Source of the DNA: a virus
DNA length: 48,884 bases
IMG/VR virus record: IMGVR_UViG_3300045988_153650
Coordinates: 1 to 48,884 of that record
Reading direction: 5' to 3' (one strand)
The number at the start of each line of letters is the position of its first letter. Position 1 is the first letter of the stretch. A program made the position numbers and the translations under genes. The notes beneath the pieces were generated by a model. The model had not been told where the DNA came from. It did no database searches and worked only from the letters and a program-made list of their open reading frames with translations. This document shows positions 4,626 to 48,884 of this stretch, piece by piece.

Positions 4626-5042
4626 TTGAGTTTAACCACAAAACAAGAAATATTCGTGCAGAGATTGATTGAAGGCTATTCTCAAAGAGAAGCCTATAAA
4701 TTCGCATATGAAGCTTCTAATATGAAAAATGAAACAATAGATAAAAGGGCTTCCGAATTATTCTCTAAAGGGGAGATTAAGGGAAGGTATGAGGAATTAA
4801 AAAACGAACTCAAACAAAAGATGTTTTATACAGTAGAAAAAGCTAATGATGATTTAGAATGGATTAAATTAAAAGCTAAAGAAGATATAGAATGTCGGGG
4901 AATAAAACAAGCTAATGCAACTACTTATCTAGGGGCAGTAAAACAACAAATAGACTTAAATGGAATTACTATAAAAGAAGCTAAAGAGGATATAGATAAT
5001 GTAATTAAGTTTGAGATAGTTGGTGCTAGAAATGAAAGCTAA
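4626..5042 (+). CDS. terS: Terminase small subunit
   Basis: [26 protein letters not shown] resembles the Terminase_2 N-terminal HTH; TTG start after AAGGAGG; overlaps terL. Confidence 0.75.
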
Positions 5043-6309
5043 AGTAGTAGCTAATAATCATTTTATTGATTTTTTAACTGACTGGAATTATAAATTTTAT
5101 TTTTTAGTCGGAGGATATGGAAGTTCTAAAAGCTATCATGTAGCAGAAAAAATATTATTAAAATTATCTACTGAAAAAAGACTTTGTTTGGTAGTTAGAG
5201 AAGTCTATGACACAATTAGAGATAGTTGTTTTAGTTTATTTGAAGAAGTAGCTAATAACATAGGAATTGGAAGTTATTTAAAATTTAAAACTTCACCCTT
5301 ACAAGTAATATTTCCAAATGGTAGCAAAATCATATTTAAAGGAATGGATAACCCACAAAAGCTAAAATCAATTAATGGTGTATCTATCATATGGCTCGAG
5401 GAATGTTCAGAGGTTAAATATGAAGGATATAAAGAGTTATTAGGTCGTTTAAGACATATGGAAATGAGTAATCACATTATTTGTTCTACTAACCCAGTAA
5501 GTAAAGCTAATTGGACCTATAAACATTTCTTTAAAAATGATGAAGCTAAAACACTTGTATTAGATGATAAAGTCTTGTATGAGAAGAGAATAGTTAAATT
5601 GAACAATACTTACTATCACCATAGCGTGTGTGATGATAATTCATTCTTGCCTAAAAGTTATATAGATGAACTTGAAAATATGAAAGCTTATGATTATGAC
5701 CTATACAGAGTAGCAAGACTAGGACAATTTGGAGTAAATGGAACTAAAGTATTACCACAGTTCAAGGAATTGCCACATGATAAAGTTATGGATTTTGTAA
5801 GCAAATGCCCTTCAAGATATATAAAAACTGGTATGGACTTTGGTTTTGTTACTTCTTATAATGCGATTATTCAAATGGCTATAGATGATAAAAATAAAGA
5901 TTTATACATATTCAAAGAGTATTACTCAAAAGGAAAAACTGATGACGAAATAGCTAAAGACATAGAAGAATTTAAGAAATTTATTATAATAGCTGATAAT
6001 GCCGAGCCTAAGTCAATAGCTTATTTTAATAGATTAGGTTACAAAATGAAAGCTTGTAAAAAGTTTGCAGGAAGTAGACTTGCAAACACAAAGAAGGTAA
6101 AAAGATTTAAAAATATTTACTGTTCAAGTGAATGTATAAATACAATAAAAGAACTTGAAAACCTAACATATAAAACAAATAGATTAGGTGAAATAGTGGA
6201 AGATGAATTTAATATAGATCCACATACATTTAGTGCTATTTGGTATGGTCTAGATGATTATGAGGTTGCAGATATAAAAAGATTTAACAGAGATAAATAT
6301 AACGTATAG
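5032..6309 (+). CDS. terL: Terminase large subunit (PBSX/XtmB-like)
   Basis: Walker A GGYGSSKS, Walker B-like [10 protein letters not shown]-terminal nuclease-size domain. Confidence 0.9.
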
Positions 6310-6319
6310 GAGGTGTATT

Positions 6320-6496
6320 ATGATTTTTAAATTATGCTATTTATTTACTTTTATAACATCAATGATGAATTTATTAGGATTTACTAATCTTGAATGGAAG
6401 CTAATATTTACGCCTTCTGTTTTAGCTTTATTGATAAACGTTGTTATGTTTATAATAGCTTTTATTGTATTTGTATTTTGCGAATACAATAAATAA
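6320..6496 (+). CDS. Small membrane protein (58 aa)
   Basis: AGGAGG RBS; two hydrophobic segments. Confidence 0.45.
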   Translation: MIFKLCYLFTFITSMMNLLGFTNLEWKLIFTPSVLALLINVVMFIIAFIVFVFCEYNK

Positions 6497-6511: not shown

Positions 6512-7876
6512 ATGAGAAAAATAAAAATAGATAAAGATTATACTTTAACTAATGATTTAATACTTGATTTAATAGATAAACATTTAACAGAAAAATCGAG
6601 ATTAGAAAAACTTCTAAGATATTACAATAATGAAAATGACAAGATAAGTAATAGAGTATATAAAAATAAAAATAAGCCACAGAATAAGTTATCTCACCCT
6701 TACGCACAGTATATAACAGATACTGCGGTTGGTTATCTATTAGGTAAACCTATAGCTTATGTTACAGAGGATAAAAAGCTTCTTGAAGAACTTACAGATA
6801 TATTTAGGTATAATGATGAAGCTGACAACAATACTACTTTAGCTAAAATGGCTTCTATATATGGTTATGCTTATGAAATAATGTATATAGATAAATTTGC
6901 TAAAGCTAGATTTAAAGCAATTAATCCTAGTGAGTTAATAGTTTGCTATGATAACACTTTAGAAGAAAATATAATATTAGCTATAAGATATTATGATGAA
7001 ATAATTAGAGTTAATGATGAAGATGAAACAATAACTAGATTAGAAATATATACAAAACCTATTGAAAATGACAAAGGGCAAATAGTTAGCAATGGTAAAA
7101 TTATAAGAGGAACTATTGAAGATGGTAATGTAATTTTAACAGATGAAGAAGATTGTTATTTTGATGATATACCAGTGAATGTTTATATAAACAATGATGA
7201 ACTTTACGGAGATTTTGAAAAAGTAATAAGTTTAATAGATGCTTATGACCAAAGTCAGTCGGACACTGCTAATGACTTTGAATTATTTACTAATTGTATG
7301 TTAATAGTAAATGGCGAGTTAATAGATGACGAACAGGCTAAAGACTTAAATGACATAAATTTAATACAGTTTTTAAATTCAGATAGTGATGCAAAATATC
7401 TTATAAAAGATATACAAGATACTGCACTAGAGAATTATAAAAACAGATTAAATGAAGATATACATAGATTTAGCTTTGTACCTAATATGAGTGATACCGA
7501 GTTTTCTTCAAATGCAAGTGGGGTAGCTATGAAATTTAAACTTATGGGGCTTGAAAACTTAGTAGGAGTTAAGGAAAGTAAATTTAAAAAAGGTTTAATG
7601 AGAAGAATAGAGTTGTTATGTGCTTATACTAAAATGAAAAATAATAGCGACTATTCTTATTTAGCTATTGAGCCAGTCTTTACTAGAAATACTCCTAATA
7701 ATGAGTTAGAGTTATCACAAATAATGCAAAACTTAGATGGAATTTTAAGTGAAGAAACTATAATTGGGATGTCGCCTAGAGTTAGTGATATACAAGCAGA
7801 AATAGAGAAAAAAGAAAATGAAAGTAATAAGCTTTATGAGGACAATTATTCTGAATTAGGTGATATGAATGTATAA
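6512..7876 (+). CDS. Portal protein (SPP1 gp6-like)
   Basis: 454 aa directly after terL; family-like composition; GGAGG RBS. Confidence 0.85.
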   Translation: MRKIKIDKDYTLTNDLILDLIDKHLTEKSRLEKLLRYYNNENDKISNRVYKNKNKPQNKLSHPYAQYITDTAVGYLLGKPIAYVTEDKKLLEELTDIFRYNDEADNNTTLAKMASIYGYAYEIMYIDKFAKARFKAINPSELIVCYDNTLEENIILAIRYYDEIIRVNDEDETITRLEIYTKPIENDKGQIVSNGKIIRGTIEDGNVILTDEEDCYFDDIPVNVYINNDELYGDFEKVISLIDAYDQSQSDTANDFELFTNCMLIVNGELIDDEQAKDLNDINLIQFLNSDSDAKYLIKDIQDTALENYKNRLNEDIHRFSFVPNMSDTEFSSNASGVAMKFKLMGLENLVGVKESKFKKGLMRRIELLCAYTKMKNNSDYSYLAIEPVFTRNTPNNELELSQIMQNLDGILSEETIIGMSPRVSDIQAEIEKKENESNKLYEDNYSELGDMNV

Positions 7877-8765
7877 GTTATATAATGGGGACTGCTTAGA
7901 GGTAATGAAGGATATTCCTGATAATAGTATAGATATTGTTATAACAGACATACCATATGGAATAGATTTTTCAGAGTGGGATGTGCTACATAATAATACT
8001 AATTCTGCATTAGGTGGTGCGAGTGAACATCAAGCTAAGAACACTTCATTTAAAAGAAGGGGTAAGCCTATTAATGGATGGTCAAAGGCAGATAAGCAAA
8101 TATCATATGAGTACCAAGAATGGTGTAATAAATGGTCTAAAGAATTATTTAGAATAACAAAAGAAGCAAGTCCTATACTTATTTTTAGCAGTAGAAGATT
8201 TCAGCATAGAGTATGTAACGCTCTTGAAGATAATGGATTTATGATAAGAGATATACTTATATGGCAAAAAGATAAATGCAATGCTAAGGCACAGAGGATA
8301 AATAATGTATTACACAGAAGAGGCATATATGAAGAATGTTATGATAATTATAGAGTTGGTAATTTAGCTCCATATTATGAACCAATTATATTTGCAATGA
8401 AACCATACAGACACACATTAACAGATAGAATATTAGAAGATAAGATAGGTGGACTATATTGCAAAGACGATAAGATACCATCAAATATATTATATTGCCC
8501 TGCAAATAAAAGAAATAAGTATCATGAAACGGAGAAGCCAGTTGAGCTGATAGAAATGTTGATAGATATATTTTCAATATATGAAAATCATACTATTTTA
8601 GATTTTACTATGGGAAGTGGCTCAACAGGCGTTGCCTGTATGAATACTAATAGAAAATTTATAGGTATAGAACTTGATAATAATTATTTTAATATAGCTT
8701 CTAAAAGAATTGAGGAGGCTTTTTTTAATGCGCAAAATAAAGAAGGTACTATGAATGAAGAATAA
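7869..8765 (+). CDS. DNA methyltransferase, beta-class (N6-adenine or N4-cytosine)
   Basis: Motif IV DIPYG near the N-terminus and motif I FTMGSGSTG near the C-terminus. Confidence 0.85.
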   Translation: MYKLYNGDCLEVMKDIPDNSIDIVITDIPYGIDFSEWDVLHNNTNSALGGASEHQAKNTSFKRRGKPINGWSKADKQISYEYQEWCNKWSKELFRITKEASPILIFSSRRFQHRVCNALEDNGFMIRDILIWQKDKCNAKAQRINNVLHRRGIYEECYDNYRVGNLAPYYEPIIFAMKPYRHTLTDRILEDKIGGLYCKDDKIPSNILYCPANKRNKYHETEKPVELIEMLIDIFSIYENHTILDFTMGSGSTGVACMNTNRKFIGIELDNNYFNIASKRIEEAFFNAQNKEGTMNEE

Positions 8766-9648
8766 TTTATCTAGTAAAGAATATTGGACCAAAAGAGAAG
8801 CCTATAAACTTAAGAAAGGCTTAAAAGATTTAAAAAAAATAGAAAAAGAATTAGTTAATGAATATAAAAAAGCTATGAATGAGATAGGTAAAGAAATTAG
8901 TAATTTATTTTATAAATATGCTAAAGATAACAACCTGTCTTATTCTGATGCAAAAAAATATTTAAACAGTAGCGAATTTAGAGAATTTAAAAGAGATTTA
9001 AAATCTTATATGAAACTTATAGAAGAAACAGGTGATGAAGAGCTTTTACTAGAGTTAAACACTTTATCAATGAAAAGTCGTATATCAAGGTTAGAAGAAA
9101 TGTTTTATCAGTGCAGTAAATATATCAATGAAGTATATGAAAGCACCAATAAAAAGCTTCAAATAGCTTATAGTAGTACAATAAAAGATAACTATTACCA
9201 AACTATATATGATATACATAAAGCTATAGGAGTTGGTGCTAGTTTTTCATATATTGATAATGATATGATAAAAGAAATATTAGCTTTTCCTTGGAGTGGT
9301 AGGCATTATAGTCAAAGGTTATGGTCCAACAGAACTAAATTAAAAAATGCTATGGTTGAGGAACTCACTCAAATGCTTATACAAGGGAAAGGTGTAAAAG
9401 AAACTTCTAAAGCATTATCTAAGAGATTAGATGCAGATTTTAAAAATTGTATTAGGCTTATACATACAGAACATAGTTATTTTATGGAAATCGCATCACA
9501 AAAGGCTTATGAGGAATGTGATGTAACTAAATATAAAATACTTGCGACATTAGATAAACGTACAAGTGAAATATGTCAAAGGTTAGATGGGGAGGGGTTT
9601 AATGTTAAGGATGCAATAGTTGGTGTAAATATGCCTCCTTTTCATTGA
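8755..9648 (+). CDS. Head morphogenesis protein (SPP1 gp7 / Mu F-like), ends at an in-frame TGA
   Basis: Position after portal; ends ...GVNMPPFH then TGA inside the family PPxHxxCR motif. Confidence 0.85.
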   Translation: MKNNLSSKEYWTKREAYKLKKGLKDLKKIEKELVNEYKKAMNEIGKEISNLFYKYAKDNNLSYSDAKKYLNSSEFREFKRDLKSYMKLIEETGDEELLLELNTLSMKSRISRLEEMFYQCSKYINEVYESTNKKLQIAYSSTIKDNYYQTIYDIHKAIGVGASFSYIDNDMIKEILAFPWSGRHYSQRLWSNRTKLKNAMVEELTQMLIQGKGVKETSKALSKRLDADFKNCIRLIHTEHSYFMEIASQKAYEECDVTKYKILATLDKRTSEICQRLDGEGFNVKDAIVGVNMPPFH

Positions 9649-9792
9649 CATCCTTATTGCAGAACAACTACTATCCCATACATAGAAAATTTAAAAGGAA
9701 CTAGATTTGCAAGAGATAGCAAAGGTAAAAGAATAGAAATAGATGCAAGTGTAACATATAAAGAATGGGCTAAGATTTACAAAGTAGATTAA
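9649..9792 (+). other. In-frame continuation of the Mu F-like gene after TGA (HPYCRTTTIPY...); no start codon of its own
   Basis: 47 sense codons in the same frame with no ATG/GTG/TTG; completes the conserved motif. Confidence 0.55.
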
Positions 9793-9811
9793 CAATAGTT
9801 AGTCTTTTTTT
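9786..9811 (+). terminator. Rho-independent terminator
   Basis: agattaac/gttagtct stem (one G-U) followed by T7. Confidence 0.65.
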
Positions 9812-9906
9812 ATGTTTAAATTTATTAATACTTATACAGAGTAAAAGCTAAAGAAAACAACTATATATATTTAGTAATTATATTAGTAATTGTTATAGTA
9901 TTTATT

Positions 9907-10022
9907 GTGTGTGAAAAACCCTACTGGTGTAGTATGAAAAAACCATACTACTCGTGTGTGAAAAACCCAACTGGTATGATTTAACCAGTATGAAAAAACC
10001 ATACTACTAAAACCATACTACT
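9907..10022 (+). repeat. Iteron-like repeat cluster (GTGTGTGAAAAACCC(T/A)ACTGG x2, GTATGAAAAAACCATACTACT x2, AAAACCATACTACT)
   Basis: Five same-orientation copies in a noncoding gap; the same core TGAAAAACCCAAC recurs at 43901-43993. Confidence 0.8.
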
Positions 10023-10026
10023 TAAC

Positions 10027-10048
10027 GAAGCTATCAAGCTTCTTTTTT
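10027..10048 (+). terminator. Rho-independent terminator
   Basis: gaagct-atca-agcttc followed by T6. Confidence 0.7.
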
Positions 10049-10129
10049 ATTGTCTTTTTACTTGTTTAGACGTAAAAGAGAACTCGGAAAACTTAGCCTA
10101 CTATGGCTTTAAACTAGGAGGATTAAAAA

Positions 10130-10735
10130 ATGGAAAACTTAGAAAACAACGTTGTTAATAATGAAGTACAAGAAAATACAGAGGTAGAAGCTAAAGAAGT
10201 TAAGACTTTCACTCAAGATGAACTTAATAAAATAGTTGCAGAAAGAATAGCTAAAGAAAAAAAGAAATTAGAAGCTGAAAGATTAAAGCAACAAGAAATG
10301 CAAGAAAAGCTTATAGAAGAAGAATCTGAAAAACTTGCTAAAATGACAGAAGCTGAAAAGATAAAGGCTAAAGCTGAAAGAGAACGTAAAAAGTTTGAAG
10401 AAAAAGTTGCTAGATATGAAACAGAAAAGAAAGCTTTTGAGCAAGAGAAAATTAAAAATGAAACTATGAAACTTTTAAGTGAAAAAGGACTACCAATTGA
10501 ATTATGTCAATTTATAAAATCAGATACTGCTGATGAAATAATGGGAAATGTAGAAGTGTTTGAAAAATGTTGGTCAGAAGCTATAGAAAAATCAGTAAAT
10601 GCTAGATTAAGGATGAGTGGTGAGTTAAAAACTTCAACTACTACTAAAGCTACTTACACAGTAGACCAATTAAGAAATATGTCAGCAGAAGAAATAAACA
10701 AAAACTGGGATAAGATAAAAAATAATTTTAGATAA
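10130..10735 (+). CDS. Scaffolding protein (DUF4355-like)
   Basis: Highly charged coiled-coil protein directly upstream of the capsid gene. Confidence 0.7.
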   Translation: MENLENNVVNNEVQENTEVEAKEVKTFTQDELNKIVAERIAKEKKKLEAERLKQQEMQEKLIEEESEKLAKMTEAEKIKAKAERERKKFEEKVARYETEKKAFEQEKIKNETMKLLSEKGLPIELCQFIKSDTADEIMGNVEVFEKCWSEAIEKSVNARLRMSGELKTSTTTKATYTVDQLRNMSAEEINKNWDKIKNNFR

Positions 10736-10773
10736 GAAAGGATAGCTTATAAAAGCTATTATGGTGAAAAAAT

Positions 10774-11550
10774 ATGGCAGTAACTAACTTTATACCTTCA
10801 ATTTGGGAAGCAAGATTATTAGCAAAATTCCATGAAAGAAGTATAACAGACTTAATAACTACAGCACCTACAAAGGTAGAAGGAAACAAAGTAATATTTA
10901 ATAAGGTATCAGATGTAGCTATAAACAAATACACTGGAACTGTAGATTTTGAAGATTTAACAACTTCAAAAGTTGAATTAACTTTAGATAATAAAAATTA
11001 TTGGGCATTTAAAGTTGATGATGTAGATGCAGTTCAATCAGCAGGAGAATTAATAGATCCACACGTTGAAGAAGCAGGATATGGATTACAAGAAGCTACT
11101 GATAAATTTGTATTAACAGAAGCTTTAAGAACTACTAATGAAGTAACTAAAGATGAATCTGATAAAGCATATGATTTAATAGTAAAAGCTAATACTGCTT
11201 TAAATAAAAACAAAGTGCCTAAGGCTCAAAGATATGCAGTTATAAATGCAGAAGTTTTACAAGATTTACAACTAGATTCAAGATTTACATTACAATATAC
11301 AATATTAGAAAACGGAATAATAGAAGGTGCTAACATAAACGGTACTCAATTAGTATTCTCTGAAGAATTAAATGGTGGAAAATTTGCTATAGTAGTATTA
11401 CATAAATCAGCTATAGGATATGCTAAGCAATTAGAAGAAACTGAAGCTATGAGATTACAAAACTCTTTTGCTGATGGTATAAGAGGACTTCAAGTTGATG
11501 GTGTTAAAACTTTAAGAGAAGAAGCTATAGTAAAATACGTTCAAGAGTAA
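10774..11550 (+). CDS. Major capsid protein
   Basis: MAVTNFIPSIWEARLL... N-terminus typical of capsid proteins; position; strong terminator downstream. Confidence 0.8.
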   Translation: MAVTNFIPSIWEARLLAKFHERSITDLITTAPTKVEGNKVIFNKVSDVAINKYTGTVDFEDLTTSKVELTLDNKNYWAFKVDDVDAVQSAGELIDPHVEEAGYGLQEATDKFVLTEALRTTNEVTKDESDKAYDLIVKANTALNKNKVPKAQRYAVINAEVLQDLQLDSRFTLQYTILENGIIEGANINGTQLVFSEELNGGKFAIVVLHKSAIGYAKQLEETEAMRLQNSFADGIRGLQVDGVKTLREEAIVKYVQE

Positions 11551-33614: not shown

Positions 33615-34760
33615 GTGATAAAAATAAAGGGTTTTACAATAAGATTATATCCAACTAAAGAACAAGAAGAACTAATGCGAAAGCATATAGGTTGTCAGAG
33701 ATATGTTTATAATTGGGCATTAGCTTTAAATAATGAATTATACAAACAAGAAGGTAAAAAGTATAGTGCAACTGAATTAGGAAAAATACTAACTCAATAT
33801 AAAAAAGAGGTAAAATGGCTTAATGAAGTTTCAAATGCTACATTGAAAGAAGCTATTAGAAATTTAGATAAGGCTTATACTAATTTTTATAAGAAAAAAG
33901 CTAAACTACCTAAATTTAAAAGTAAGAAAACACATAATAATACTTTTTATAGTAGATATGACAAAATAAAATTCTATGAAAATGATACTGTAAACTTAGA
34001 AAAAATAGGTAAGGTTGAATGTAAATCAAGTTATGATATAGATTTTACTAATGTAGCTAAATTCTCTAATCCTAATGTTACTTTTAATGGTAGATGTTGG
34101 GTACTTACATTTAGTATAGATATTGAAAATGAGTATATTGAATTAACTGATAAAGTGTTAGGAATAGATTTAGGAATTAAGCAGTTAGCAATAGTTAACG
34201 AGGAAGGTCTAGATATACCTAATATCAATAAAACTAAAAAAGTTATAGATTTAGAAAAGAAATTAAAGAGATTGCAAAGACAATGTTCAAGAAAATATGA
34301 AAATAATAAGATAGGGGGATATTACCAAAAAACTAAGAACATTGCAAAACTTGAATTAAAGATTAAAAAACTTCATAGAAAACTTAAAAATATTAGATTA
34401 AATCATATTCATCAAGCTACTACTAAGATAGTGAAAATCAAACCGTCTATGATAGTAATGGAGGATTTGAAAGTATCTAATATGATGAAAAATAGACATT
34501 TAGCTAAATCAATTCAACAACAAGGTTTTTACACATTCATAGAACAAATGAGATATAAATGTGAATGGAATGGTATTAAATTCGTTCAAGTTCCAACATT
34601 TTATCCTTCAAGTAAAATGTGTAGTTGTTGTGGCAATATCAAAAAAGATTTAAAGCTATCAGATAGAGTTTATAAATGTGATAATTGTAATTCTATATTT
34701 GATAGAGATAAAAATGCTAGTCAAAATTTAGTTAATTATGGGTTAGAAATATCACTTTAA
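33615..34760 (+). CDS. tnpB: TnpB (IS200/IS605-family OrfB, RuvC-like RNA-guided nuclease)
   Basis: FTIRLYPTKEQ N-terminus; RuvC D (GIDLGIK), E (VMEDLKV), D (FDRDKNAS); zinc finger CSCCGN...CDNCNS. Confidence 0.9.
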   Translation: MIKIKGFTIRLYPTKEQEELMRKHIGCQRYVYNWALALNNELYKQEGKKYSATELGKILTQYKKEVKWLNEVSNATLKEAIRNLDKAYTNFYKKKAKLPKFKSKKTHNNTFYSRYDKIKFYENDTVNLEKIGKVECKSSYDIDFTNVAKFSNPNVTFNGRCWVLTFSIDIENEYIELTDKVLGIDLGIKQLAIVNEEGLDIPNINKTKKVIDLEKKLKRLQRQCSRKYENNKIGGYYQKTKNIAKLELKIKKLHRKLKNIRLNHIHQATTKIVKIKPSMIVMEDLKVSNMMKNRHLAKSIQQQGFYTFIEQMRYKCEWNGIKFVQVPTFYPSSKMCSCCGNIKKDLKLSDRVYKCDNCNSIFDRDKNASQNLVNYGLEISL

Positions 34761-34885
34761 AGATATTCTAATTTGGGTATTCGTTACAACCCACACCAAT
34801 AGGTACAAAGTCTATGGAGTGTTATATCAAACGAAAGTAGCTAAGGCGAAATCGGACACTGTGAAGTAGAAAAGAAACGAAAATC
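34700..34885 (+). ncRNA. Candidate TnpB omega RNA (reRNA) scaffold; boundaries approximate
   Basis: Locally GC-richer, stem-rich noncoding tail right after the tnpB stop (gggtattcgttacaacccacaccaataggtac...ggagtgt...gacactgtgaag). Confidence 0.45.
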
Positions 34886-41050: not shown

Positions 41051-41746
41051 ATGGAGATAAGATTACTAAAAGCTAATGAAATAGAGTGTAGAATAGGGAC
41101 TTTTAAAGAAGGGAAGGGAATTAGCTTATTGCTTTACAAAGATGCTAGGGTTGATATGAGAATACTTGATGAAGTATTTGGGTTTGACGGTTGGGAAAGA
41201 GAGCACCAGCTTATAGACGGTAAATTATTTTGCACAGTAAAAGTGTGGAGCGAAAAAAGGAATTGCTGGATAAGTAAGCAAGATGTAGGAACTGAAAGTA
41301 ATACAGAAAAAGAAAAAGGGCAAGTATCAGACAGTTTTAAAAGAGCGTGTTTTAATCTAGGTATAGGAAGGGAATTATATACTTCGCCTTTTATATGGAT
41401 TCCAGCTTCAATGGGTTATAGTAAGTACGAAAAATTTGAAGTTAAAGAAATAGGCTACAATGATGATAGAGAAATAAATATGCTAGTTATAGTTGATAGT
41501 AAAGGTAAAGAATGTTTTAGATTTGGAGATAAAACTAAGCAAGTAAAACAAGTAAAAAGAGAAGTTACAGAAGCTATGGTAAAAGCACTTTATAAAATAG
41601 CTAACGATAAAGGCTATAGTGATGATATGGTTGAAAAAGCTTCTAAAAGGGACTATAAGAATAATGTAATAGATATATCAATGAAAGATTATATGACATT
41701 AAAAGCTAAATTAGAAGGACTTGAAGCTAAAAAAGTAGGGGCTTAA
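41051..41746 (+). CDS. Rad52/Sak-family single-strand annealing protein
   Basis: YKDARVDMRILDEVFGFDGW...KGQVSDSFKRACFNLGIGRELY. Confidence 0.75.
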   Translation: MEIRLLKANEIECRIGTFKEGKGISLLLYKDARVDMRILDEVFGFDGWEREHQLIDGKLFCTVKVWSEKRNCWISKQDVGTESNTEKEKGQVSDSFKRACFNLGIGRELYTSPFIWIPASMGYSKYEKFEVKEIGYNDDREINMLVIVDSKGKECFRFGDKTKQVKQVKREVTEAMVKALYKIANDKGYSDDMVEKASKRDYKNNVIDISMKDYMTLKAKLEGLEAKKVGA

Positions 41747-41887: not shown

Positions 41888-42508
41888 ATGGGGGAGAAAA
41901 AAGGAATTGATATAAAAAAGTGTGCTTATAAGGTTATTGTAGATAGCAGAGAAAAGTCTATAAATCACATACTAACTAAATTTGAAGAAGGCTTTGAGCT
42001 TAAACCTAGCCACCACGATATGTATAGGGGTATCAAGAGTAAATATAGTAATCCAGTAGCTTATTATAAGCAAGATAAAGGCTTAAAAACTGGAGATTTT
42101 ACTATATGTGTGCAACTACCAAGTGGAGAACAAATTAACTTCAAAGATAAGGTTGTAATAGAAAGAAAACAAGGACTTAATGAACTTTGTTCAAACTTGT
42201 TTGATAAAGATAGTAAAGATAGTGAAGGACTTAATAGATTTGAGCGTGAGTTAAAGCGTGGGTATGAGCAAGGGATAAAGATTTATTTATTAGTCGAACA
42301 GTCTGACTTATACAGTAAAATTTATTCTAGTAAACATTTCAGATACGATAAAGCTTCTAAAGTAAACCCGTCAAGCTTTGTTGCTATGTTAGAAAGTTTA
42401 TTAGTTAGATATAATGTTAATCTAGTTTATTGTGATAAGAAAGACAGTGCCAGAATTATAAATGATATTTTGTATTATGAAGCTAGAGAATATTTAAAAA
42501 AAATTTAG
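41888..42508 (+). CDS. ERCC4-type (Mus81/XPF-like) nuclease, candidate junction resolvase
   Basis: VDSREK ... TGDFTI ... VIERKQGLNEL (GD-ERK signature). Confidence 0.65.
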   Translation: MGEKKGIDIKKCAYKVIVDSREKSINHILTKFEEGFELKPSHHDMYRGIKSKYSNPVAYYKQDKGLKTGDFTICVQLPSGEQINFKDKVVIERKQGLNELCSNLFDKDSKDSEGLNRFERELKRGYEQGIKIYLLVEQSDLYSKIYSSKHFRYDKASKVNPSSFVAMLESLLVRYNVNLVYCDKKDSARIINDILYYEAREYLKKI

Positions 42509-43258: not shown

Positions 43259-43426
43259 ATGTTTAATTTAGGGGATAAAGTTGAAGTTAATTTACATAAT
43301 AAAAGTATTCACAGGGAAGGGGTTATAATAGAAATGAAGCCACACAAAGGCAAAATAGTTTACAAAGTTCTATTTGAAAGCGATAAGGTAAGTTGGTTAA
43401 GTGGTTCTGAGCTTATAAAATTGTAA
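43259..43426 (+). CDS. Hypothetical protein (55 aa)
   Basis: AGGAGAGGG RBS. Confidence 0.45.
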   Translation: MFNLGDKVEVNLHNKSIHREGVIIEMKPHKGKIVYKVLFESDKVSWLSGSELIKL

Positions 43427-43449
43427 TTTATTTCTAAAGAGGTGATTTT

Positions 43450-43629
43450 ATGAAGGTAAAAGAATATAGACTTTTAAATGGATATACACAAACTGAAATT
43501 GCTAATATTTTGAATATAAAACAAAATAGTTATAGTAATAAAGAATTAGGGAAAAGGGCTTTTACAATAGAGGAGATAAAATTATTAAAAGAATTGTTTG
43601 AAGTAACTTATGATGATTTATTAAATTAA
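43450..43629 (+). CDS. XRE-family HTH protein (59 aa)
   Basis: LLNGYTQTEIANILNIKQNSYSNKELGKR. Confidence 0.65.
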   Translation: MKVKEYRLLNGYTQTEIANILNIKQNSYSNKELGKRAFTIEEIKLLKELFEVTYDDLLN

Positions 43630-43642
43630 TAGGGGGGAGTAA

Positions 43643-44374
43643 ATGAGTTATACAATTGTAGATAATGAAATAATTAGAGCAGATTTAAAAGCTACACCGA
43701 AAATAGTCTTAATATCTATATTAAGTTATCATAACAAAGAAAAGGGATACTCTTATCCAAGTCATAGTGATTTGATGCGAGATTGTTGCATAAAAGATAA
43801 GAATACACTTATAAAAGCTATAAAAGAACTAGAAAATTTAGGATATTTAAGAAAAGAAACTATTAAAGGGGTTGGGAATAGGTATTATGTTAAAGGTGTT
43901 GTGAAAAACAATACTACTGAAAAAATAAGTAGTGTGAAAAACCCAACTACACCAGTAGGAAAAACCCAACTGGAGGTGTATGAAAAACCCAACACAATAA
44001 ATACTAAAACAAATACTAAAACAAATATTAATAATAAAAAGAAACAAATATACAAAGATTTATCTTTTATAGATTTAAGCTTAGTAAAAGTAACAGAAGA
44101 AGAGTATACCAAGTTAATTGAGTTAGCGAAAGGTGATAGCGAATTAATACATGATAAAATGCTAAGTTTGGAAGTAGGGATAGCTAACAAGAAAAAAAAG
44201 TATTTAGGATATAAAAATCATTATTTAACATTGAGGCAATGGATAAATAAAGATAACAAAAAAACACCTACTGCAATAGGTGCTGAAAATAAAAATATTA
44301 AAGTTAATCCTAGTATATGCAAACAAGTAAATAAATATACTCAAGAAGTTGAAATTGGGGGTTGGGGTGTATGA
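43643..44374 (+). CDS. Replication initiator / replisome organizer (N-terminal winged helix, DnaD-like C-terminus)
   Basis: LISILSYHNKEKGYSYPSHSDLMRDCCIKDKNTLIKAIKELENLGYL; iterons within the linker; followed by the primase-helicase. Confidence 0.65.
   Translation: MSYTIVDNEIIRADLKATPKIVLISILSYHNKEKGYSYPSHSDLMRDCCIKDKNTLIKAIKELENLGYLRKETIKGVGNRYYVKGVVKNNTTEKISSVKNPTTPVGKTQLEVYEKPNTINTKTNTKTNINNKKKQIYKDLSFIDLSLVKVTEEEYTKLIELAKGDSELIHDKMLSLEVGIANKKKKYLGYKNHYLTLRQWINKDNKKTPTAIGAENKNIKVNPSICKQVNKYTQEVEIGGWGV
43901..43993 (+). repeat. Iterons inside the initiator gene: GTGAAAAACAATACTACT, GTGTGAAAAACCCAACT, GGAAAAACCCAACTGG, TGAAAAACCCAAC
   Basis: Four same-orientation copies; same core as 9907-10022. 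Confidence 0.8.
43996..44030 (+). repeat. AT-rich tandem repeat AAATACTAAAAC x2 next to the iterons
   Basis: Read directly; encodes NTKTNTKTN. Confidence 0.7.
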
Positions 44375-46176
44375 ATTTGAAAAATATAATTGATGATATA
44401 AAAAAATATATAGATGCTGAACAAGTTAAAAATAAAATAGCTACTGATTTAGGATTAAAATTTAAAAATAATAAATGTTTATGTTTTTTACATTCTGAAA
44501 GTAATCCAAGCATGAGTTTTGATGTTAAAAAGAAAAAATTCAAATGTTTTTCATGTGGTCAAAGCTATGACATATTTAATCATTATCAACAATACTATAA
44601 GTTATCATTCCTAGAGGCTGCAAAATCCATTGTAAGAGATTTTAATTTAAATATAGATGTAACTATCAACGAGTCAGATAGAAAACCTAAAAAACCTCCT
44701 ACAAAGCACAAGAGTTATAATGATGCAATATTAAATTATTGCAATAAAAGAAGCATATCAAAAGCTACATTAGATTATGTTGGAGTTAAGGGGAATTTTA
44801 ACAATAAAGATGGAAATAGTGTATGTTTTGAATATAGAAATGAATTAGGAGAACATTTATGTAATAAGTATAGATTTACTTCCAAAAATGCTAATCCTAA
44901 AATGAAATTTGAAGAAGGTACTAATGTAAATACTTTATTCAATATGGATAAGGTGAATATATCAGAGCCTTTATTAATAACAGAAGGTGAATTTGATTGT
45001 TTAAGTGCTATAGAGGCAGGCTTTAAAAATGCAGTATCAATACCAAGTGGAGTAAATTCAACAAATCAATGGATTACAAGTAACTGGACTTTTATTGAAC
45101 AGTTTGAAGAAGTAATTATATGGTTTGATAATGATGAGCCTGGAATAAAAGGTGCTAGAGAAGTGTTTAATAGACTTCCGAATAATTCAGTTAAAATAGT
45201 TAGATGTGAAGTAGCTAATGATATAAATGAATTATTGCACAAGTATGGGAAGTTAGCAGTATTAAAACAAATAGAAAAAGCTTCTACGCCTACACTAGAA
45301 GGTGTTGCAACACTTGATATGATAGAGGACTTTGATGTACATGAAGCAGAAACTCTTAAAACTGGTATAGATTACATTGATGATAAGCTTGTAGGGATGG
45401 TGTTTGGAAGTCTTAATGTTTTAAGTGGTAGAAATGGTAGCGGTAAATCAACTATATTAAATCAAATATATATTGCAGAAGCTATTACTCAAGGCTATAA
45501 AACATTTTTATTTAGTGGCGAGTTAATAGGGGGGAATGTTAAGTACTGGCTACTTCAAACTTTAGCTAATGAAGAACAATTTGCAGAATATACTGCTAAA
45601 GATGGTCATAAATATAAAAAAGTTACAATTCAAGCAAAAGAAAAAATAGTTAATGATATGAAGGATAGGTTTTTCTTATATGATAGTGATGATTATAGAA
45701 TTGAAGCTATAATTGAGAAAATGACTATCTTAGCTAAAAGATATGGAGTAAGAGTATTTGTCATAGATAATCTTATGACTATTGAAAGTAGTTTGAAAGA
45801 TAAATATGAAGCTGAAACTGATATAGTTAAAAAACTAAAAAACTTTGCTAAAAAATATAATGCAATAGTTCATTTAGTTGCACATCCTAGAAAATCGATA
45901 AATGAAACTATAAGCAAAGATGATGTAGCAGGTAGTGCTAATATAACAAATTTAGCCGACTATGTAACTGTAATAGAAAGAAACTTTGATAAAGATAAAG
46001 AGTATGATGCTTCTTTAAATATATTGAAGAACAGACATACAGGCGTAAATGTTGAAATGAAGCTAAAGTTTAGCATTGAAAGAAAGAGATTTTATAGCCC
46101 TAGTTTGAATGAATTAAGCAAAAGATATTTAGATGATTTTGAACAAGTAGAAATTGATGAATGGGAAAATATATAG
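44371..46176 (+). CDS. Bifunctional primase-helicase (zinc finger + TOPRIM + DnaB/RecA-like ATPase)
   Basis: CLCFLHSESNPS...CFSCG zinc finger; TEGEFDCLS TOPRIM; Walker A GRNGSGKST; Walker B VFVIDNL. Confidence 0.85.
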   Translation: MNLKNIIDDIKKYIDAEQVKNKIATDLGLKFKNNKCLCFLHSESNPSMSFDVKKKKFKCFSCGQSYDIFNHYQQYYKLSFLEAAKSIVRDFNLNIDVTINESDRKPKKPPTKHKSYNDAILNYCNKRSISKATLDYVGVKGNFNNKDGNSVCFEYRNELGEHLCNKYRFTSKNANPKMKFEEGTNVNTLFNMDKVNISEPLLITEGEFDCLSAIEAGFKNAVSIPSGVNSTNQWITSNWTFIEQFEEVIIWFDNDEPGIKGAREVFNRLPNNSVKIVRCEVANDINELLHKYGKLAVLKQIEKASTPTLEGVATLDMIEDFDVHEAETLKTGIDYIDDKLVGMVFGSLNVLSGRNGSGKSTILNQIYIAEAITQGYKTFLFSGELIGGNVKYWLLQTLANEEQFAEYTAKDGHKYKKVTIQAKEKIVNDMKDRFFLYDSDDYRIEAIIEKMTILAKRYGVRVFVIDNLMTIESSLKDKYEAETDIVKKLKNFAKKYNAIVHLVAHPRKSINETISKDDVAGSANITNLADYVTVIERNFDKDKEYDASLNILKNRHTGVNVEMKLKFSIERKRFYSPSLNELSKRYLDDFEQVEIDEWENI

Positions 46177-48143: not shown

Positions 48144-48506
48144 ATGAATTGTAAATGTAATTATTGTGTGCATGGCTACACTACAATACTTTCGGAAACT
48201 GGTATGGGATGTAATAATTTGAATTTATGTACAGATAATAGTTCATTTAAACCAACAAAGGAGTGGATTGAAATGACTGATAGAATCAAGAAGGAAAATA
48301 AAGAAATGGTTAATCACCCTTCTCATTATAATAAAGGGAAATATGAAGCTATTGAAGTTATCGAAGATTGGCAACTTAACTTTAATCTTGGAAATACAGT
48401 AAAGTACATTGCTAGAGCAGGTCATAAAGACGACACAATACAAGACTTGAAGAAAAGTCTTTGGTATTTGCAAAGAGAAATTGATAGATTAGAAAAAGGG
48501 GAGTAA
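48144..48506 (+). CDS. DUF3310-family protein with Cys-rich N-terminal extension
   Basis: VNHPSHYNKGKYEAIEVIEDW...GNTVKYIARAGHK...DLKKSLWYLQREI. Confidence 0.75.
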   Translation: MNCKCNYCVHGYTTILSETGMGCNNLNLCTDNSSFKPTKEWIEMTDRIKKENKEMVNHPSHYNKGKYEAIEVIEDWQLNFNLGNTVKYIARAGHKDDTIQDLKKSLWYLQREIDRLEKGE

Positions 48507-48508
48507 TT

Positions 48509-48884
48509 ATGAAAGTAACTGTAACTCATTTGATGGGAACTAATAGAGAAATAGCAGACTATGCTAGGACTACAATAGGATTAAATGGCGGAGATAAAAA
48601 AGTATCAGATGAATACATGAGAAAATTATATTTATGCGAACATAGTCCTATCAGAAATCAATGGTATAAAATTAGATTTGAAGATATTCCATATTGTATA
48701 GGTATGCACTTTGCTAGGCACAAAATAGGAGTTGAACATTTTTTCTCGACTCAAAGAAGTGATAGAACTGGAATTGACAGAAGTGAAAGAAAACAAACAG
48801 ATCCAGTTTTATATGAAATGGTAGCTAATGCACAAGCAATTATAACTATAAGCAGAAAAAGACTTTGTAATTGTGCAGATAAAG
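48509..48884 (+). CDS. ThyX-like protein, N-terminal part (continues at base 2 across the circular junction)
   Basis: GGGGAG RBS; CEHSPIR...FARHKIGVEHFFSTQRSDR resembles the ThyX RHR-x7-S...SQRY motif. Confidence 0.55.
   Translation, partial: MKVTVTHLMGTNREIADYARTTIGLNGGDKKVSDEYMRKLYLCEHSPIRNQWYKIRFEDIPYCIGMHFARHKIGVEHFFSTQRSDRTGIDRSERKQTDPVLYEMVANAQAIITISRKRLCNCADK
48766..48884. repeat. Right copy of 119-bp terminal direct repeat
   Basis: Identical to bases 1-119. Confidence 0.95.

Follow-up and report, generated by a model that had tools for sequence, protein, structure and literature searches.

In this study, we analysed the viral record IMGVR_UViG_3300045988_153650 from IMG/VR over its full 48,884 nucleotides (nt) (the window; all feature coordinates are window positions). 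We believe that a repeat-rich element at 9.87-10.02 kb, in the non-coding gap between the genes for a MuF-like minor head protein and the head scaffolding protein, is probably a second, distal, oriR-like copy of the replication-origin module of this phage and a docking site for the predicted replication initiator encoded at 43643-44374. The gap and the initiator gene share a two-part architecture of repeats and an AT-rich array, the repeats are exclusive to these two loci, they co-vary with the type of initiator among related phages, and the distal locus takes the position that oriR takes in Bacillus phage SPP1. We infer that the initiator binds both loci; whether the distal array then acts as a barrier, a second origin or a titration site is a matter of speculation. 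What is new here is the oriL/oriR layout of SPP1 in an uncultivated low-G+C phage whose initiator has a DNA-binding domain unrelated to that of the SPP1 initiator G38P.

Two repeat loci in one genome

The gap between the MuF-like and scaffold genes spans 9793-10129, which is 337 bp provided that the MuF-like gene continues past an in-frame TGA (9646-9648) and ends with the TAA at 9790-9792, and it contains no credible open reading frame (ORF). A preliminary description of this DNA had given a non-coding gap of roughly 320 bp with five repeats in the same orientation, and both statements agree with our results. The repeats form a plus-strand iteron array at 9907-10022, with four full copies and one partial copy of about 23 nt and anchored spacings of 24, 23 and 33 nt. 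Two copies have the form GTGTGTGAAAAACCC(T/A)ACTGGT (A1 at 9907-9928 and A2 at 9954-9975), two have the form AGTATGAAAAAACCATACTACT (B1 at 9931-9952 and B2 at 9987-10008), and the partial copy B3 lies at 10001-10022. Tandem Repeats Finder reported 3.0 copies with a period of 24 nt at 9907-9975 and 2 copies with a period of 14 nt at 9995-10022. The A-type (GTGTGAAAAACCCAACTGG) and B-type (GTATGAAAAAACCATACTAC) repeats are two versions of a single unit, and intermediates between them, for example TGAAAAACCCAACTAC and TGAAAAACAATACTACT, occur among the copies in the initiator gene. The array is adjoined by an AT-rich element at 9866-9908 with about 2.8 copies of a 12-mer (period 12 nt, 2.8 copies at 9872-9905 by Tandem Repeats Finder), and the A+T content of 9793-9906 is 84%, compared with 72% overall. 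We regard this element as a candidate DNA-unwinding element. A minus-strand ORF of 39 amino acids (aa) at 9883-10002 was rejected as an artefact of the repeats.

The second locus lies inside the plus-strand gene at 43643-44374, whose 243-aa product matches Pfam HTH_36 (4e-12) and the families phrog_270, phrog_428 and phrog_186 ("replication initiation protein"); its PHROG matches include "replication initiation O-like" families. The gene lies directly upstream of a primase-helicase gene and overlaps it, and by family and context the protein is an initiator, which is presumed to load the primase-helicase at the origin. In this protein, the DNA-binding HTH_36 domain is N-terminal and is followed by a linker, whose coding sequence holds the repeats, and by a C-terminal tail common to other initiator types. 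The fourfold recurrence of the repeat core on the same strand, which had been described before, was found here as an array of four repeats at 43899-43996 (about codons 87-117 of 243; anchored spacings of 33, 23 and 23 nt), the putative equivalent of oriL. By Tandem Repeats Finder, the period is 23 nt with 2.5 copies at 43936-43993. This array is adjoined on the plus strand by 2.8 copies (Tandem Repeats Finder) of the AT-rich 12-mer AAATACTAAAAC at 43999-44031, and the A+T content of 43997-44060 rises to 87.5%, again against 72% overall.

In the whole window, searched on both strands, the core TGAAAAA(A)CC(C/A)(A/T)AC is restricted to these two loci, on the same strand. When one mismatch at most was allowed, the core TGAAAAACCMWAC had six matches, all on the plus strand (9912, 9959, 43902, 43935, 43958 and 43981), compared with 0.34 expected, and none of 100 shuffles reached six. 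A weight matrix was built from the eight full sites, with the first C following the A run as the anchor, and was used to scan the window: all eight sites scored at least 19.7 bits, and the next best site in the window scored 14.0 bits, which is the level of simulated sequence.

The two loci resemble each other in organization as well as in the core. Both are two-part, with 2.5-3 copies of a 23-24-nt repeat and 2.8 copies of a 12-nt AT-rich unit, and, starting at the AT-rich element and moving away from it, the repeats are spaced 24-23-33 nt in the gap and 23-23-33 nt in the gene. When the gap was aligned locally with the initiator gene, the best match was the AT-rich segment in inverted orientation, where 9883-9910 (TTAGTAATTGTTATAGTATTTATTGTGT) is 93% identical over 28 nt to the reverse complement of 43992-44019 (E 2e-7 in a small search). 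At the sequence level, an AT-rich region thus adjoins the repeats at both loci, as in origins of the SPP1 type, and there are at least three direct repeats of about 17-24 bp, helically phased, with the initiator-gene cluster inside the gene itself, as in origins of the iteron type. Compared with contig 3300045988_142192, no substitution was found in 43900-44099, although the aligned stretch 43449-45000 is 92.7% identical.

Positions 1-119 of the window are identical to 48766-48884, a direct terminal repeat that is a signature of assembly; the genome is therefore circular and complete, with a length of about 48.77 kb. The metagenome contig L295 spans the window end: its positions 6059-6394 align with 48185-48520, and from its position 7018 onward it aligns with about 311-700. 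The distance of 34 kb between the clusters given in the preliminary description is correct along the window, but around the circular genome they are also 14.8 kb apart.

The gap is bracketed by transcription signals. On the left, a terminator-like hairpin follows the MuF-like gene on the plus strand (9786-9811; AGATTAAC-AATA-GTTAGTCT followed by T7, with the stem-loop at 9786-9805). Its folding energy is -7.7 kcal/mol (z = -3.7) and it is kept in relatives; the terminator scan missed it because it has fewer than three G-C pairs. On the right, the plus-strand intrinsic terminator that had been pointed out at 10027-10048 is present as GAAGCT-ATCA-AGCTTC (10027-10042) followed by T6. The terminator and then TTTATTGTC are kept before the scaffold gene in all relatives, whatever the type of their repeat cassette, including the cassette-less L009 and L011, and the terminator belongs to a conserved boundary ahead of the scaffold operon. 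The motif TTTATTGTC(T/C) directly after the terminator and the scaffold leader (10049-10129) are conserved in the equivalents L003-L011 and L205, with every cassette type and also where a cassette is absent, and may serve the head operon as its late promoter or as a leader element.

These signals bear on a different explanation, which had also been put forward in the preliminary description: the gap could hold a structured small RNA gene of about 140 nt that runs from TATAGT at about 9894-9899 to the terminator at 10027-10048, with the repeats acting as RNA hairpins. We consider it very unlikely. The terminator is good, TGTTATAGT reads as an extended -10 element, and the gap folds more stably than shuffled sequences (-33.4 kcal/mol, z = -5.1). 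However, the hairpins are the repeats themselves, and the fold is stable because these are partly palindromic. The letters of the proposed promoter TTAGTA-17-TATAGT (9871-9899) are present, but the consensus scan called no promoter, and its TATAGT is part of the AT-rich 12-mer array, which also occurs, inverted, in the initiator gene. No Rfam family matched the whole window at the gathering threshold, apart from RAGATH-18 at 34811-34872, or 9700-10200 at E <= 1. The terminator also stays before the scaffold gene in the relatives without a cassette, as an operon boundary would.

Repeat types among related phages

In IMG/VR there are relatives that show 85-99% identity to the window in the portal, MuF, scaffold and capsid genes. 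These relatives carry different repeats at the MuF-scaffold position, each matching the repeats in its own initiator gene, and three types were found in five genomes. In type 1, which comprises the window and contig 3300045988_142192 (initiator 95% identical), the repeat TGAAAAACCCAAC is present in the initiator gene and in the gap. In type 2 (contigs 3300045988_138726 and 3300045988_151297), the repeat CTAACAACAAT is found in the linker-coding part of the gene and as 3-4 tandem copies in the gap. In type 3 (contig 3300045988_125016), there are three copies of GTATTAAAATTRATAC in the gene and five in the gap. The N-terminal domain of the type-2 initiators is unrelated to that of type 1, and the type-3 initiator is 34% identical to type 1. 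The C-terminal residues (about 40 aa) of the window initiator are common to the type-2 and type-3 initiators, are all that it has in common with type 2, and presumably form the part that contacts the conserved primase-helicase. In the initiators of lambdoid and Firmicutes phages, the N-terminal domain determines specificity and the C-terminal part contacts the helicase system.

The best local scores of each gap against each initiator gene in the five genomes gave a block-diagonal matrix. The scores were 34-40 bits within type 1, 36-56 bits within type 2 and 74 bits for type 3, and the cross-type scores were 20-28 bits. Against the type-2 gene of L066, a contig without a matched head gap, the type-2 gaps scored up to 78-86 bits. 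The genes between the two loci are mosaic. For example, the large terminases of the two type-2 genomes are 92% and 30% identical to that of the window, and their scaffold proteins are 97% and 41% identical. Simple co-inheritance as one block therefore fails to explain the matching, which we read as a sign that selection favours a distal site matched to the resident initiator. In addition, type-1 variants differ in the spacers and retain the repeat cores.

The comparison with relatives bears further on the small RNA. Relatives exchange the whole sequence for unrelated repeats that match their own initiator gene, the type-3 repeats are inverted relative to the terminator, and the variant in L245 and L289 breaks three of the eight pairs of the main hairpin and keeps the repeat cores. 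We therefore retain, against an RNA gene of about 140 nt, the reading of the gap as a distal copy of the origin module.

Several further variants of this junction were observed. A pattern scan of metagenomes gave matches that were mostly due to chance, and L245, L289, L295, L313 and L328 were related loci among the matches listed; over the initiator region, L295 and contig 142192 do not differ. In L245 (230-830) and L289 (Ga0079226_10279843 and Ga0079226_10272595), extra genes lie between the MuF gene and the type-1 cassette, and by eye their translations look like homing endonucleases. Both contigs end within the repeats, as expected because the sequence is repeated within one genome. In the gaps of several type-2 relatives (L082 8135-8972, L083 5450-6203, L084 4946-5701, L085 and L089), there is a gene of about 92 aa, and its product in L084 is a stand-alone paralogue of the N-terminal DNA-binding domain of the type-2 initiator (36-38% identity, E 1e-15 to 1e-17). 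This gene has separate repeats of its own, ATTTATGTGAT, or TAGACAGTTGA in L082, which recur in its promoter region and beside the CTAACAACAAT repeats. The paralogue may be a regulator of the distal origin module or a competitor for it.

The more distant relative L059 (contig 3300029305_005099) has the type-2 cassette twice in its late region, at 5070-5200 directly upstream of the small terminase gene and at 9860-9960 directly upstream of the scaffold gene. A sister contig (L061 and L070; 3300031555_005414) also has the repeats in the initiator gene, and genomes of the L059 type would have three copies of the cassette each. At 7440-7560 in L086 (contig 3300045988_148823), a fourth repeat type, GGTACTAAAAATAGTAC, occupies the same slot, with four copies by eye and three by motif search, and is preceded by the same TATAGTATTTATT-like AT-rich element. 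The search with GGTACTAAAAATAGTAC gave 81 mostly unrelated matches, and a second site in contig 148823 was not found.

Such variants raise the question of whether the gap array might be a functionless remnant, left when the origin segment was partially duplicated, or repeatedly copied by gene conversion, into a permissive hot spot between genes. The junction does accept insertions, including the extra and homing-endonuclease-like genes in L245 and L289, and in several relatives part of the initiator gene, namely its DNA-binding domain, is present as a copy beside the repeats in the gap, which suggests an origin by duplication. On the other hand, the repeats fit the resident initiator in three types and five genomes despite the mosaic exchange of the genes between, full repeats with ordered spacing are retained, the type-1 variants change in the spacers and not in the cores, and the distant SPP1 has the same arrangement. 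We hold this to be very unlikely.

We also considered that the initiator-bound array could control transcription of the late head operon, as an operator, an insulator or a coupling of late transcription to replication. This is unlikely in our judgement, and of the rival explanations it is the one we would take most seriously. The cassette lies directly upstream of the scaffold and capsid operon and between two terminators, L059 has the same cassette at the heads of two late operons, and the repeats of the gap paralogue recur in its promoter region in several relatives, in a manner like autoregulation. However, the cassette retains the AT-rich 12-mer array that is typical of origins and is not needed by an operator, no late promoter was identified beside the repeats, the orientation of the cassette relative to the operon varies, and the SPP1 equivalent has been treated as an origin or a barrier (PMC6316719, PMC3485210).

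Comparison with SPP1 and the possible role of the distal array

Studies have shown that the SPP1 initiator G38P binds the direct repeats of oriL, which lies in gene 38, and those of oriR (Godinho et al. 2018, PMC6316719), and that both origins are composed of repeats and an AT-rich unwinding region (PMC6316719). The order of the SPP1 head genes is broken by a segment with oriR and the extra genes 8-10, which is "bracketed between transcriptional signals" and follows the MuF-like gene 7 directly, ahead of the scaffold gene 11 (PMC6316719). The two-locus precedent of SPP1, on which the preliminary description had drawn, proved closer than it had stated. In the SPP1 genome (NC_004166), gene 7 ends at 4728 and gene 8 starts at 5064, the 335-bp gap between them opens with a terminator, and this gap matches nt 395-441 of gene 38, its linker-coding middle, over 48 nt at 87.5%.

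In both SPP1 and the window, the second cluster lies right after the MuF-like gene and before the scaffold gene, and the in-gene cluster lies in the linker between the initiator domains. Both also have an adjacent AT-rich segment, brackets of transcription signals, and annealase and nuclease genes for recombination-dependent replication. On the circular map, about 12-13 kb separate the two clusters of SPP1 (PMC3485210, PMC6316719), compared with 14.8 kb for those of the window. As far as sequence goes, the shared repeats and AT-rich element, the co-variation and the SPP1 position support the earlier suggestion that the gap could be an oriR-like second site for the 43643-44374 protein. The two systems also differ. 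The repeat sequence of the window is unrelated to that of SPP1, the window has a fused primase-helicase whereas SPP1 has G39P plus G40P, the extra genes 8-10 of the SPP1 gap region are absent from the gap of the window, and the two copies are collinear in SPP1 whereas the gap repeats of the window are inverted relative to the AT-rich element.

Several points weigh against an oriR-like distal site. The window initiator has no detectable BLASTP similarity to G38P (E 4.5) and matches Pfam HTH_36 only; the window would therefore work in the manner of SPP1, but initiator homology does not place it in that system. In the sister phages, by comparison, the type-2 initiators are homologous to G38P (E 1e-18 to 2e-19). 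In types 1 and 3, the gap repeats are inverted relative to the AT-rich element when compared with the in-gene module, and the gap copy may therefore be unable to fire as an origin; in type 2, unlike types 1 and 3, the gap and gene modules are collinear. Conservation within type 1 is weakly sampled, with three effectively distinct sequences found, and the fourth repeat type in contig 148823 is unpaired with its initiator. Extra genes tend to be inserted at the MuF-scaffold junction, a hot spot in this respect, and location alone therefore says little. The second cassette of L059, before the small terminase gene, hints at a possible link with late operons and not with fork arrest.

In the mechanism that we propose, the primary, oriL-equivalent origin would be formed by the repeats in the linker-coding part of the initiator gene, where the initiator would bind and would load the adjacent primase-helicase. 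The same initiator would bind the array in the head gap, 14.8 kb further round the circle. By analogy with oriR, the bound distal array would most likely be a roadblock or a second assembly site. In the SPP1 model, oriR bound by G38P stalls the theta fork, and this leads to recombination-dependent concatemer synthesis (PMC3485210). Likewise, the initiator at the distal array could stall the fork, and the annealase and nuclease could convert it to recombination-dependent concatemer synthesis. Alternatively, the distal array could be a second origin or a titration site. We speculated that the inverted arrangement in the gap might keep binding and yet prevent productive helicase loading.

A broader proposal can be made only tentatively, and we think it somewhat doubtful as a whole. 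A distal array matched to the initiator might be selected and general in phages with an SPP1-type head module, its cassette being swapped together with the DNA-binding domain. The gap copy may bind without firing and so act as a programmed barrier to the fork, setting the time at which theta replication gives way to concatemer synthesis, and stand-alone copies of the domain could modulate replication or interfere with co-infecting phages.

Other replication systems share parts of this layout. In lambda O with ori-lambda and in the replisome-organizer genes of lactococcal phages, the initiator gene itself contains about four initiator sites, with an AT-rich region after them. To our knowledge, these in-gene origins have been described as single, whereas in the window there is a second matched copy far off among the head genes. 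Iteron plasmids, for example P1 with incA and F with incC, have an extra initiator-binding array outside the origin that may titrate the initiator or handcuff. Unlike these, the array in the window lies 14.8 kb away from the origin and not next to the initiator gene, and it is accompanied by an AT-rich element of its own; no partition or other plasmid-maintenance genes were found in the ORFs scanned (27.6-34.8 kb). No description of distal arrays of this kind outside SPP1 was found in a literature search of incomplete coverage.

The role proposed for SPP1 oriR, as a second origin or as a fork barrier that sets off the change to concatemer synthesis, has so far rested largely on one phage and on in vitro binding. 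Here, the same two-site layout is found in an unrelated AT-rich uncultivated lineage, with the distal site tracking the DNA-binding domain in three types, and this co-variation is comparative evidence for selection on the distal site. The natural pairs of initiator and site, matched and swappable, make the function of the distal site testable, and the co-variation series is the main added value of this study. For annotation, a repeat-rich gap between MuF and scaffold genes can be origin-like and is not necessarily a promoter or an RNA gene.

Neighbouring genes and further observations

The genome has a G+C content of about 28%. Its head module includes the large terminase (5020-6309), an SPP1-type portal (6512-7876), a DNA methyltransferase (7869-8765), and, on the left of the gap, the MuF-like (SPP1 gp7-like) minor head protein on the plus strand (8755-9792; Pfam Phage_Mu_F 3e-14, phrog_115 2e-104 across the TGA). 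To the right of the gap are the plus-strand gene for the head scaffolding protein (10130-10735; Pfam DUF4355 6e-17, phrog_172) and the major capsid gene (10774-11550). The neighbours of the replication genes include a Rad52/Erf-like annealase (41051-41746) and an ERCC4 nuclease (41888-42508), and the fused primase-helicase (44362-46176, plus strand), with a CHC2 zinc finger, Toprim and DnaB_C, overlaps the end of the initiator gene. No tRNA or tmRNA was found by scanning the window.

In GenBank phage records, a distant DNA search with 9000-11000 gave matches in Clostridium and Bacillus phages, all of them within the coding sequence of the MuF and capsid genes, and a search with 43400-44600 gave no match. 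Searched against genomes, the portal protein had one close match, on a 2.7-kb contig in a genome bin of uncultured Bacilli; the other matches were distant Bacillus and Lysinibacillus prophages. With a plasmid-prophage reading in mind, the ORFs at 27.6-34.8 kb, a part of those in the window, were scanned, and no partition or integrase domain was found in them.

A conserved motif (PPFH*HPYCRTTT) is interrupted by the in-frame TGA of the MuF-like gene. The relatives L082, L085, L088, L089 and L245 have this TGA too, each time with a C after it, and in the first 9 of the 47 codons after it, the stretch compared, these relatives differ by synonymous changes alone; the extension therefore appears to be translated. 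Other relatives have GTT or CCA at this position and the canonical H-x-x-CRSC motif. Use of TGA as a sense codon throughout the genome (code 4) was rejected, with TGA ending 7 of 45 long ORFs and only the MuF-like gene gaining a homologous extension. Selenocysteine was considered by looking for a conserved hairpin downstream of the TGA, and none was found. Programmed leaky readthrough, which would give forms of 297 and 345 aa, therefore seems more likely than selenocysteine.

A gene of the TnpB/IS605 OrfB type, with OrfB_IS605 and Cas12f1-like TNB domains, lies at 33615-34760. It is followed by the RAGATH-18 RNA (34811-34872, 70.9 bits), and the pair looks like a transposon-associated nuclease with a guide-like RNA inside the phage genome.

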